Positions 1,719-4,628 of a stretch of DNA of 42,368 bases are shown here, piece after piece. Source of the DNA: a virus (Duplodnaviria > Heunggongvirae > Uroviricota > Caudoviricetes). Numbering within the stretch: the first letter of the stretch is position 1; every line of letters starts with the position of its first letter. Location: positions 1-42,368 of the IMG/VR virus record IMGVR_UViG_2737471817_000007; one strand, 5' to 3'. Under the pieces are notes generated by a model. The model did no database searches. It was not told where the DNA came from and saw nothing but the letters and a program-made list of their open reading frames with translations. A program made the position numbers and the translations under genes.

Positions 1719-1827
1719 GTAAAATCAATAACGGCTGTAAATCATTCAATACTCGCCCTATCGGAAGTTCACCAGCCAACCGCAGCACGTTCTTGCATAC
1801 GACGTGGCTGCGGTTTCAACTCCCGCC
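1719..1827. repeat. Hairpin element copy A (two predicted stem-loops; conserved loop ttcttgcatacga)
   Basis: About 90% identical to 3491-3602; core hairpin 1780-1813 shared with 4573-4608. Confidence 0.7.
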
Positions 1828-1912
1828 AATCATGATTGAGCGATAGTAGAATAGTAATAACAAAAATTGGTAGTTATCAGGCTCAGCAAAACACCAATCG
1901 GGTGGTGAGGAT

Positions 1913-1936
1913 ACAAAAAAGGCACCCGCAGGTGCC
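1913..1936 (-). terminator. Intrinsic terminator closing the XRE-ImmA operon (minus strand)
   Basis: ggcacc-cgca-ggtgcc stem-loop followed on the minus strand by a U-run (plus-strand aaaaaa at 1915-1920). Confidence 0.5.
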
Positions 1937-1999
1937 TTAAATACTAACCCTTAGCAGCGCACTAAAAATGCCCACGCCTCGTACCCGTAATCATGAGCA

Positions 2000-2104
2000 T
2001 CAAGGACTTTTTTTGATTTCCCACGCACCTTGCGGTAACGGCAGAAAACCCAACGGAACCCTTTGGGCGCCGCTTTTGAAGCAATTGATTTCAAACCCAT
2101 TCAT
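2000..2104 (-). CDS. Small 34-aa ORF (MNGFEINCFKSGAQRVPLGFLPLPQGAWEIKKSP) downstream of ImmA
   Basis: Strong Shine-Dalgarno (aaggaggtg) 5-6 nt upstream of the ATG; lies between the ImmA stop and the 1913-1936 terminator; below the ORF-track size cutoff. Confidence 0.25.
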   Translation of the reverse strand: MNGFEINCFKSGAQRVPLGFLPLPQGAWEIKKSP

Positions 2105-2222
2105 AAAACACCTCCTTACCAAGAGAGATTTTTCCCTTGAACATCTTCCCTGAAGGTGTTAATTTCAGGCTGTCTATCGAAGCTGTTCACGGTGGTGATG
2201 CCTCTTGGATTCATCACCTAAA

Positions 2223-2259
2223 GCCCCTTGCACTGGTTGGCGCCAAGCAAGGGGTTTTT
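2223..2259. terminator. GC-rich hairpin with T-run at the ImmA 3' end (terminator-like, better formed on the plus strand)
   Basis: gccccttgc ... gcaagggg stem followed by ttttt. Confidence 0.35.
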
Positions 2260-2779
2260 ACATTTTGTCTAGCTGATAACGCGCTGCCACTAATGAAACT
2301 CCGCATGCCTCAGCAACATCCTCAGCCGTCATACCTTTTAAAATACTGGCATGCATAGCTGGCACTAATAACTCACCACTAAAACATTTAGCTTGCCATT
2401 CACTACTCTCAAAAGGGCGGATTTTTACCCCTGGGGCAGAACGAGCAAATGCGATGTTCCTGTGCATAAGAAGATGACCCAGTTCATGCGCGGCAGTCAT
2501 CCTATCTCGCCCTACCCCATTCAAAGCGCCTTCGTAAATGTCTTCGCGCAGAATCAATAAATGTTCCTGTGGGTATGTAAGACCATGCGTCTCTCCCATT
2601 TCTTTCATACCACCAATGTGGAACTCAAAATCCGGGATCAACTGAGGCAATGCGAACTCAATTACCTCCATTACAGGGAATTTAAGCCCAGTAATACCAA
2701 ATGCGCTCCGCAGAGATCTGACGATAGAACGTATTGATTCACGATTCTGCGGAGGTACACGATAATCTTGTCCGCTCAA
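2258..2779 (-). CDS. ImmA/IrrE-family zinc metallopeptidase (COG2856-like)
   Basis: 173 aa with HELGH zinc-binding motif; immediately downstream of an XRE HTH gene in the same operon. Confidence 0.7.
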   Translation of the reverse strand: MSGQDYRVPPQNRESIRSIVRSLRSAFGITGLKFPVMEVIEFALPQLIPDFEFHIGGMKEMGETHGLTYPQEHLLILREDIYEGALNGVGRDRMTAAHELGHLLMHRNIAFARSAPGVKIRPFESSEWQAKCFSGELLVPAMHASILKGMTAEDVAEACGVSLVAARYQLDKM

Positions 2780-2787
2780 GCCGCCTC

Positions 2788-3147
2788 CTACTGCTGTTTT
2801 CGATTCAAAATCTGTCGTAAATTACGGAAGTCTTCTTCATTTAACTCATCAAAACTACGAGCGAACGCAATTGCGACTTCACGAGCGTGGCCATTCTTAC
2901 CTGACAAGCTGATCTCTACTGACTGCTGAGAGTCACGAGCTGCACTGATAAGCTTTTCTTTTTGTTTTTCATCCGCATTAAAATAGCTAATGATGCTATC
3001 AAGCACGGGCTTAGTGACCGCCCTTTTACCAGTTTCGATCGCTGAAAGATAAGACGAGGTCATACCCATAGCCTCAGCCATGCTTTTAAGCGTAAGCCCC
3101 AAGTCTATGCGCATTTTTCTTACTGTCTTACCAAACGGCGTTAACAT
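2788..3147 (-). CDS. XRE-family helix-turn-helix transcriptional regulator
   Basis: 119 aa; LTLKSMAEAMGMTSSYLSAIETGKR is a typical XRE HTH. Confidence 0.7.
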   Translation of the reverse strand: MLTPFGKTVRKMRIDLGLTLKSMAEAMGMTSSYLSAIETGKRAVTKPVLDSIISYFNADEKQKEKLISAARDSQQSVEISLSGKNGHAREVAIAFARSFDELNEEDFRNLRQILNRKQQ

Positions 3148-3327
3148 AGTTGCTTCTCCAGTGTGTCAAAGACCTTCAGTACTTCAGGTCTCATTTTAAG
3201 TTAACACTCCACAGACATGAAATCAACAAAATTCTGTTAATTTTTTTATCTTGCTTAGTTTATGAGTTTACATCTTATGTTGATAGAACTGTTGGTTGGT
3301 GAAGAATCATGGGGAAATGAGTCGTAA

Positions 3328-3483
3328 TCTCTTGATATTTTATGGTATGGAGATGAGTGTCAAAGCTACCATAGCGATGATTTTCCTGTTACCTACACCG
3401 CAGATAAGGATTCTGCTAATGCTTTTGTTCAGGAGACTCTGAAAGATACCTGGGAGTCTGCTGACGAGTGGTTTGTTCATTAA
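3328..3483 (+). pseudogene. Start-less ORF fragment (...[24 protein letters not shown]) ending exactly where hairpin element B begins
   Basis: About 50 codons of protein-like sequence with no in-frame ATG after the upstream stop. Confidence 0.2.
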
Positions 3484-3490
3484 TTAATAC

Positions 3491-3602
3491 GTAAAATCGA
3501 TAACGGCTGGAAATCATTCAATACTCGCACTATCGGAAGTTCACCAGCCAGTCGTAGCACGTTCTTGCATACGACGTGGCTACGGGTTTCGAGACCGACC
3601 CG
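3491..3602. repeat. Hairpin element copy B
   Basis: About 90% identical to copy A; hairpin 3553-3585 has a compensatory stem change (C-G to T-A) relative to A. Confidence 0.7.
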
Positions 3603-3725
3603 ATCATCAAACGAAACATAAAATTAGCTCACATTATGAGGAAAGGTATCTTTTTGCGCTATGTAAATTCAAAGGGTTAGCCTCATTTTCCCGATGGCTT
3701 TCTCAACACTACTAGTTGTGAGCCC

Positions 3726-4550
3726 TTGCAATGTTCATTAATATACGTCTCACAAATAATTCACAGATATTGCAAAATGGATATTACTGAGTTTCCTTCT
3801 GGAGTAATTGAACACCTTGGCTGGTATGTATACCGATTGATTGATCCTAGGGATGGAAGCACCTTCTATGTAGGGAAAGGCAAAGGTAACCGCGTATTTG
3901 CCCATATGCGCGGTGAAGTGGCAGCGGCTGATGATGACGAGTTACTGAGCAACAAGCTAAAGCAAATCAGAGAAATAAGATTAGCGGGACTTGAAGTTAT
4001 CCATGTCATCCATCGACATGGAATGACTGATGAAAAGACGGCGTACGAAGTTGAAGCAGCACTTATTGATGCCTACCCTGGGTTAACGAATATCATGAAT
4101 GGTGCTGGCAGCAATGAATTCGGCGCCGCGCATGTCAAAGAGTTGATAGCAACATATCAACCCGAAACCATAACATTTCATCATAAAGCATTAATGATTT
4201 CCGTTAACAGAAGTGCAAAGGATTCAGAGCTTTATGATGCGGTTCGATTTAGCTGGCGCATTAATGTCTCTCGCGCCAGCCAAGCAGAAGTCATTCTTGC
4301 TACTGTAAGGGGGATCGTTCGAGGGGTTTTCATTGCTGATAAATGGCTCAAATCAACACGTGAAAATTTCCCTACGATGAAATACTGGGACGAGGATCCG
4401 GACTTTGAGGCAACACAAAGTTCTCGCTATGGTTTTGAAGGTCGAGAAGCCCCACCTGAAATAGCAAATCTTTATCTTGGAAAAAAAATACCAGATGAAT
4501 TAAGAAAAAAAGGAGCTATGTCCCCGGTCCGTTACTCACCTAATTTTTGA
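3726..4550 (+). CDS. GIY-YIG nuclease-domain protein with an uncharacterised C-terminal domain (start codon uncertain, possibly 3777)
   Basis: [28 protein letters not shown] matches the GIY...YIG catalytic motif; divergent from the XRE-ImmA operon. Confidence 0.6.
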
Positions 4551-4570
4551 GTCTTTAAGTGATAAGCATA

Positions 4571-4628
4571 AACCGCAGCACGATCTTCTTGCATACGACG
4601 TGCTACGGTTTCATTTATCTCCGACCGG
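4571..4628. repeat. Hairpin element copy C (core only), overlapping the 3' end of the invertase gene
   Basis: ccgcagcacg-atcttcttgcatacga-cgtgctacgg; left arm is A-type, right arm is B-type. Confidence 0.6.

Follow-up and report, generated by a model that had tools for sequence, protein, structure and literature searches.

A covarying two-hairpin element at the cargo borders of temperate coliphages: a probable plus-strand structured RNA and joint for homologous recombination

The 42,368-nt stretch analysed here (virus record IMGVR_UViG_2737471817_000007, Caudoviricetes, positions 1 to 42,368; hereafter the window) is a prophage that carries a hairpin element three times (copies A, B, and C) in the accessory, or cargo, region at its left end, the last copy lying beside pin, the gene of a serine DNA invertase. 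The locus raises the question of what this element is and why it stands at the borders of cargo genes. A preliminary description offered two answers, namely cassette-border recombination sites associated with the neighbouring serine recombinase or, as a fallback, a structured RNA or terminator-like insulator. The fallback is the better supported of the two. We consider it probable that the element is a plus-strand structured RNA, either a dinI 3' untranslated region (3'UTR) or a small RNA with a terminator, whose conserved core doubles as a joint for homologous recombination, and that the invertase is not involved.

The element is about 100 nt long and consists, in order, of a −10-like TAnAAT hexamer, a hairpin P1, and a hairpin P2. 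A covariance model (CM) was built from 97 family members and scored at every position of the 42-kb window. The following copies were found:

1720–1816, + strand: copy A, full element (CM match 1729–1820, 105.7 bits, E = 2e-24)
3492–3588, + strand: copy B, full element (CM match 3501–3592, 104.4 bits, E = 4.5e-24)
4571–4610, + strand: copy C, the P2 hairpin alone (CM 20.6 bits, E = 0.002)

There was no fourth copy in the window, the next CM matches having E values of at least 0.09. Copies A and B, described earlier as about 90% identical, share 91% identity over 103 nt (1714–1816 versus 3486–3588, repeat finder). In copy A, the hexamer TAAAAT lies at 1720–1725 and the P1 arms at 1733–1738 and 1772–1777, around a loop at 1739–1771; P1 has five pairs here because base 1738 is T. 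Its P2 is made up of a 5' arm (1778–1791), the apical loop CTTGCATAC (1792–1800), and a 3' arm with one bulged G (1801–1815). Copy B starts 9 nt past the stop codon of a dinI fragment, with TAAAAT at 3492–3497, P1 arms at 3505–3510 and 3544–3549, and P2 at 3550–3588. Copy C has a left arm at 4571–4582, a 3-nt insertion plus the conserved loop at 4583–4598, and a right arm at 4599–4610. Alignment and folds agree that all three copies share a hairpin, and the exact 17-mer TTCTTGCATACGACGTG occurs at 1790, 3562, and 4586. The compensatory C-G to T-A change noticed between A and B is also present (CCGCAGC/GCTGCGG in A, TCGTAGC/GCTACGG in B). The loop, first given as 13 nt, is indeed conserved, but it is further closed by U-A and U·G pairs to a 9-nt apical loop, CUUGCAUAC.

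Anatomy and covariation were examined in 97 distinct copies (alignment A3); because these sequences are related, the counts overstate the number of independent events. In 103 of 116 copies, the distance from TAnAAT to the loop core downstream is exactly 23 nt; the third position is the sole variable base of the hexamer. A −35-type hexamer, TTGAAT or TTGAAC, is found at a distance of 16–18 nt in three flank classes only. P1 is GGCTGG/CCAGCC, with the covarying forms GACTGG/CCAGTC, GGCTGA/TCAGCC, GATGG/CCATC, and others, and encloses a loop of about 33 nt (AAATCATTCAATACTCGCACTATCGAAAGTTCA) that is nearly invariant, also in copies retrieved through the P2 loop. P2 has a stem of 12–14 pairs that is variable and in many copies contains a single bulged base; its apical loop, yTCTTGCATACGr, is conserved. 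In alignment A3, 89.3% of the cells were paired, versus 28–54% when the partners were slid. Both sides had changed in 15 of the 21 pairs, with 148 doubly changed cells against 34 expected, and none of 500 shuffles reached the observed values; the model-fitted alignment gave 90.6% paired cells and 17/21 pairs changed on both sides. The kinship among the sequences notwithstanding, the slid controls are clear: both stems covary. The covariation proposed from the window thus recurs in the homologues, with compensatory changes in 15–17 of the 21 pairs family-wide, and the structure is real and under selection for pairing.

Two further observations concern the loops. Of 26 positions in the P1 loop of copy A (1743–1768), 19 are complementary to the 3' coding end of the tail-fibre-assembly gene tfa (5963–5988), including two uninterrupted matches of 7 and 9 nt. 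This tfa segment encodes the conserved end ..DTSGAPDIEW.., and the 26-mer or a one-base variant of it occurs about 30 times among the fetched loci; the complementarity may be a relic, a target, or chance. An exact k-mer scan for loop targets recovered the antisense of the element itself and, beyond that, a single 10-mer to which no weight is given. In the copy of Sakai prophage Sp15 (L129, 1098–1130), the P2 loop reads CGCTCTTACA, which would equal the boxA of lambda nutR extended by two bases; the resemblance is weaker for the family consensus, GTTCTTGCA.

The strand on which the element would act was assessed from the asymmetry of its stems and flanks. Among 61 distinct P2 stem haplotypes, G·T oppositions outnumber A·C oppositions 68 to 26. 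The 8 nt after P2 hold at least five T in 42/97 copies, some of them reading GCGGTTTTTCTTTTT, and in all 97 at most three of the 8 nt that precede P2 are A, so the full copies have no minus-strand U tract. The −10-like box is also on the plus strand. The P2 wobble bias, the T tracts, the absent minus-strand U tract, and the −10-like box thus point to the plus strand, convergent with the late genes. P2, with its 12–14 pairs, has the G+C-rich stem of an intrinsic terminator. Copy C is the only copy in the window with T-rich tails on both strands: its P2 pairs fully on the minus strand through G·U and is followed there by UUUAUGCUUAU. The 66-nt stretch around it folds at −19.8 kcal/mol (z = −3.7; 0 of 200 shuffles were as good), and from its sequence it looks like a two-way terminator between the defence gene PD-T4-3 and pin. 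Shortly 3' of P2, one flank class carries a 14-bp palindrome, CCAATCATGATTGG, which is present in the window as CCAATCATGATTGA (1826–1839) and in 12 other copies; it looks like a putative protein-binding site.

A homology search with a 141-nt query matched 196 phage records, and the family has a recurring position at the border between cargo and tail-fibre genes. In temperate coliphages, the element stands at the junction of the accessory prophage end (att, int, dinI, morons, and defence genes) with the 3' end of the late tail-fibre operon. Its orientation is constant, always convergent with tfa or pin, and Pin or Tfa is encoded on the opposite strand no more than 625 nt downstream in 36 of 105 distinct contexts. 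The commonest upstream neighbour is a DinI homologue, found directly upstream on the same strand in 48 of the 105, the arrangement expected of a DinR-like small RNA derived from the 3'UTR of a LexA-controlled dinI. The dinI gene of Sakai Sp15 carries CTGT-N8-ACAG boxes; given these boxes, the element would be transcribed in the SOS response where dinI is intact.

The element is present in 5386 of 5426 complete Escherichia coli genomes (>99%), with a median of three copies and 15,612 places in all. Lambda has one copy at 24162–24274, between ea31 and ea47 and on the same strand as both, and a second, degenerate copy at 22566–22662 (L001, 4613–4709) that fills the gap between tfa and ea47, so that ea47 is bracketed by two copies. 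The HK97 copy lies between sib and the end of tfa and directly abuts sib; in Shiga toxin (Stx) phages, the element begins at the dinI stop codon; and one K-12 copy is located at the end of Qin. Nearly every E. coli strain also has a copy between ecpE and ykgJ, beside a decayed dinI, in which P1 and P2 are both kept (93.9 bits by CM). The order in this ecpE-ykgJ-yagU region (L130, 2400–2640 and 3004–3203) is dinI pseudogene, element, ykgJ, and a segment matching Rfam IS009, and the region resembles the end of an ancient prophage that became fixed in E. coli. Rfam IS009 also matches inside tfaQ of Qin, and the published small RNA EcsR2 sits in the same ykgJ-yagU gap as the IS009-matching segment. 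The family was found only in Escherichia, Shigella, Citrobacter, and a few Salmonella phages; outside Escherichia/Shigella, the strict pattern matched Citrobacter only. The 33 genome matches of that scan (L218–L250) include many short, low-coverage, or approximately 48.5-kb contigs in unrelated taxa (Streptomyces, Enterococcus, Pseudomonas, Shewanella, and others) that carry the lambda version of the element; these are most likely contamination with lambda control DNA.

The flanks of the element are mosaic and combine freely. The 114 full copies compared fall into 16 classes by their upstream flank and 34 by their downstream flank, and 53 pairings of the two were seen; the dinI flank by itself is paired with 16 different sequences downstream. 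The cassette-border position proposed for the window recurs in many phages, as with ea47 of lambda. Eleven fetched loci hold a full and a partial copy (P2 only in nine of them) on the same strand, about 1–1.6 kb apart, around a cargo gene. In three more relatives, the copies are 4.1–4.3 kb apart and enclose PD-T4-3 together with an apparent restriction-modification pair, a 491-aa cytosine-methyltransferase-like open reading frame (ORF) and a 404-aa ORF, judged from their sequences only. The cassettes found between copies elsewhere include PD-T4-3, a methyltransferase-like ORF, others, and lambda ea47.

Copy C illustrates how such arrangements may arise. Its left arm, AACCGCAGCACG, is A-type and its right arm, CGTGCTACGG, is B-type, which leaves one C·A mismatch on the plus strand; the same A-left/B-right chimera is present within a full element in L153. 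The relative L160 represents the empty state, with att, about 60 nt, one element, and pin, and its P2 joins a B-type left arm to a C-type right arm with perfect pairing. This agrees with the suggestion that C is the product of an exchange within the conserved loop: P2 copies sharing the 17-mer stand on both sides of the PD-T4-3 cassette, and the mismatch in C is what a crossover in the loop would leave. Ordinary homologous recombination across the conserved core accounts for this exchange better than a serine recombinase does.

The proposed mechanism is as follows. The element would be made as RNA on the plus strand, as the 3'UTR of a LexA-controlled prophage dinI or from its own promoter. P2 would serve as intrinsic terminator and 3'-end hairpin, so that cargo transcription ends before it can extend, in antisense, into the late genes, and copy C would also terminate pin from the opposite side. 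Because the core is conserved (17 nt exactly in the three window copies, and about 100 nt at about 90% between A and B), it could act as a homology patch at which general or phage-encoded homologous recombination crosses over. Such crossovers would stack or swap cassettes and leave chimeric stems like that of C.

The layout of the window accords with the border position. Its ends are marked by tRNA-Thr(CGU), as an intact gene at 40925–41000 and a partial 3'-end copy at about 120–205 (located by eye); the prophage is integrated at thrW, and the cargo region lies directly inside its left end. BLAST groups the window with SfV/SfI-like phages. The 4.5 kb from the att end to pin are cargo, and the late tail-fibre genes and pin are on the minus strand. 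The features are:

673–1461, + strand: 262-aa ORF with a weak HNH_5 match, cargo upstream of copy A (ORF list, Pfam)
1951–3147, − strand: cargo between copies A and B, comprising a CapH-like helix-turn-helix (HTH) protein gene, a CapP/IrrE-like M78 peptidase gene, a small ORF, and its own terminator
2788–3147, − strand: CapH-like HTH
2258–2779, − strand: CapP/IrrE-like M78 peptidase
1951–2100, − strand: small ORF of 49 aa without a family match
1919–1938: terminator of the A–B cargo
3337–3483, + strand: C-terminal fragment of prophage dinI (Pfam DinI, E = 1.5e-4; 22.4 bits, below the cut-off of 24.2)
3777–4550, + strand: PD-T4-3 anti-phage defence gene (GIY-YIG nuclease), cassette between copies B and C (PADLOC, E = 2.2e-140, full length; Pfam LEM-3_GIY-YIG)
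4611–5165, − strand: Pin/Hin-type serine DNA invertase, converging on copy C (Pfam Resolvase, E = 1.3e-51, and HTH_7)
5227–7109: invertible tail-fibre segment of about 1.9 kb, bounded by the invertase crossover sites 5227–5245 and 7091–7109 (TTCTCCCAAACCAAGGTTT)

The copies lie at the cargo borders as first described: A follows the HNH-like ORF, B the dinI fragment, and C occupies the gap that separates the stops of PD-T4-3 (4550) and pin (4611–4613). The dinI fragment is without its promoter. PD-T4-3 is a single-gene defence system, and its cassette recurs with an identical P2-only copy in more than 20 viral contigs. HTH and peptidase pairs of the CapH/CapP-like kind usually regulate a defence effector, and the sole candidate effector for the pair at 2258–3147 (− strand) is the 49-aa ORF at 1951–2100. 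The arms of the crossover sites are 19-nt inverted repeats with 95% complementarity (repeat finder), and the segment between them holds alternative fibre tips and two convergent tfa genes (ORF list).

Several points weigh against a plus-strand RNA. P1 is without strand bias (10 G·T versus 13 A·C oppositions). The plus-strand tails after P2 read TTTCAACT in A, GGTTTCGA in B, and TTTCATTT in C; the T tracts of A and B are weak, and the P2 loop of 9–13 nt compares with 3–8 nt in the usual definition of an intrinsic terminator, which also asks for at least five U in the 8 nt directly after the stem, so that a simple terminator scan did not flag them; nor did it flag C. The −35 is poor in the dinI context (TGGTTT), and the −35 hexamers of A and B are also poor and passed unflagged in the promoter scan. 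In a preprint on Hfq RIL-seq with lambda, PreS, LPR2, and 6S are the only lambda small RNAs named, and nothing is reported at 24.2 kb; the Hfq-CRAC list of enterohaemorrhagic E. coli is without a peak on the element, a screen that left out sites less than 100 bp from coding regions, so that the element could not appear in it. The invariant loops are not explained by a plain terminator. The minus strand might itself be the functional one: P2 would be a terminator or 3'-end hairpin serving either the late operon (tfa, pin) or a small RNA like CssrB, and the features on the plus strand would be incidental. The Rfam model of CssrB passes its gathering score of 76 on the minus strand of one variant (L137 and L208, 151.6 bits across P2), with P2 as its last hairpin; that strand is transcribed there, ending at P2. 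The window copies A and C match below that score (24.7 bits at 1781–1817 and 24.5 bits at 4574–4633, both on the minus strand), and the full minus-strand pairing of C, followed by its T-rich tail, fits the same picture. Furthermore, the one Hfq-CRAC peak near the element, the published EcOnc47 (L129, 977–1023; Sakai 2896476–2896522, minus strand), is antisense to the 3' end of Sp15 dinI, just past the element, which suggests a transcript crossing or starting in the element on the minus strand. Nevertheless, we judge a minus-strand function decidedly unlikely: the 8 nt that would be its U tract are poor in A on the plus strand in 97/97 full copies, the P2 wobbles favour the plus strand, and P1 and the −10-like box would fall downstream of the terminator and be left unexplained.

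The element might instead be a decaying remnant of the dinI 3' flank, possibly with the tfa 3' end, that has no function, hitch-hikes with its neighbours, is homogenised by recombination, and contains fossil terminators. Stem mismatches occur in many copies (26 A·C and 60 others among the P2 haplotypes), truncated copies exist, the P1 loop resembles the complement of the tfa 3' end, and the function proposed for the element is a predicted one. This explanation is unlikely, since compensatory changes keep both stems paired across divergent lineages, two loops stay nearly invariant amid unrelated flanks, the −10-like hexamer varies at its third position only, and the core-genome copy is structurally intact beside a decayed dinI. 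The association with site-specific recombination fares worse. The hairpins would then be att sites of the cassettes, at which the serine invertase next to them, or some other dedicated recombinase, excises and inserts cargo units in an integron-like manner. The copies are direct repeats at cassette borders beside pin, their stems, each with a bulged base, form imperfect palindromes around a conserved centre, the chimeric C fits a loop exchange, and the HK633 record (JQ086377; L002, 2509–2589) labels the element attP. But Pin has its own sites in the window, and these are unrelated to the element; the element is common in lambda, HK97, and Stx phages, whose sampled flanks hold no invertase, nor is there one near the core-genome relic. 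There is no integron-type integrase gene, and the junctions vary (whole element, P2 only, and 5'-truncated copies). In 1857 E. coli genomes, the IntS-type integrase gene (intS in the listed records) and the element form one continuous match that covers 80–100% of the query; in integrated prophages of this type, the whole element thus stays joined to the integrase gene, so the crossover is not inside it. The attP label of HK633 is probably a mis-annotation, and a role as site-specific att site is highly improbable.

Other identities were considered and rejected. Over A, B, and C there was no gathering-level match in Rfam 15, the window's only such match being the tRNA, and an E-value scan of the window gave only the partial CssrB hairpin and an STnc130-like terminator outside the element. 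Among known small RNAs, DinR, AgvB/AsxR, EcOnc22/31/47, EcsR2, PreS, and LPR2 were checked, and by position none is the element. The sole ATG frame on either strand (nine codons, minus strand) crosses a covarying stem, so the sequence of such a peptide would not be conserved (by eye). A repetitive extragenic palindromic (REP), enterobacterial repetitive intergenic consensus (ERIC), or miniature inverted-repeat transposable element (MITE)-like repeat does not fit copies found only in prophage contexts and in one fixed orientation; terminal inverted repeats or target duplications were not noticed, with no formal search made. A riboswitch-like ykgJ leader was discarded, as most copies have convergent genes downstream.

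The element is an unannotated case of known kinds, on the one hand a 3'UTR, small RNA, or terminator of phages and on the other a mosaic joint; no earlier description of it was found in the literature, including a search by its sequence strings. A bolder proposal, conceivable and on the unlikely side, is that it constitutes an unrecognised family of phage regulatory RNAs of about 90 nt, SOS-linked through dinI or self-promoted and present in the lambda b region and the E. coli core genome, whose loops would act in trans on tfa mRNA 3' ends, host RNAs, or proteins, and whose DNA would be a preferred crossover point moving defence cassettes between unrelated temperate phages. If the reading as plus-strand RNA and recombination joint holds, one conserved structured element marks the spot at which temperate coliphages take up and trade accessory genes; examples are PD-T4-3, restriction-modification systems, lambda ea47, and type III effectors such as nleC. 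Its sequence would then offer an easy way to locate prophage cargo and hot spots of defence genes, and the element itself would be a concrete substrate for testing homologous recombination in phage mosaicism. With covarying stems and invariant loops, it is a candidate new RNA family that is present in the best-studied phage and absent from Rfam. The HK633 annotation would be corrected, and the Shigella small RNA CssrB would be tied to a much wider element.

Several known systems resemble the element in part. The 3'-terminal hairpin of CssrB (Rfam RF02799, Shigella; model positions 145–180) is the reverse complement of P2, loop included; however, CssrB lies on the opposite strand, and its other 144 nt cover one particular downstream flank and not P1. 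DinR, an Hfq-dependent small RNA that is cleaved off the 3' end of Klebsiella dinI mRNA, uses the dinI terminator and is SOS-controlled (PMC10907235), providing a precedent for a functional dinI 3'UTR. It derives from a chromosomal dinI and is described as Klebsiella-specific (PMC10907235), whereas the element follows prophage dinI paralogues; the two were compared by description. The lambda sib/tI retroregulator is likewise a structured RNA downstream of int, on the int strand and att-proximal, and the HK97 element abuts sib. No resemblance between sib and the element was noticed, no alignment of the two having been made. In IntS-type prophages the element remains linked to int after integration, which is opposite to the sib logic.

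The hix, gix, cix, and pix sites are also short imperfect palindromes beside an invertase gene. The pix consensus is a 26-bp imperfect palindrome with an AAACC..GGTTT core, arranged as an inverted pair around the invertible segment. The pix sites of this phage (5227–5245 and 7091–7109) carry a AAACCAAGGTTT core, typical of Hin-family sites; in contrast, P2 is without this core, and its three copies are direct repeats outside the segment. Integron attC sites share with the element imperfect palindromes with extrahelical bases at cassette borders and a structure that is kept more than the stem sequence. Unlike in integrons, there is no IntI-like ORF in positions 1–8000 (R and L boxes were not formally searched for), the cassettes have their own promoters and stand in either orientation, and the loop keeps its sequence, as that of attC does not. 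Lambdoid morons and mosaic boundary sequences were reportedly described by Juhala et al. in 2000. As in the moron arrangement, cargo with its own promoter and terminator stands beside a late operon, and short conserved joint sequences occur where homologous recombination reshuffles the flanks; the mosaic-boundary work (Juhala et al., 2000) is also cited in PMC4104026. In the present family, by contrast, the boundary is one specific structured and covarying element with invariant loops, which is reused at many joints and often doubled around a cassette.

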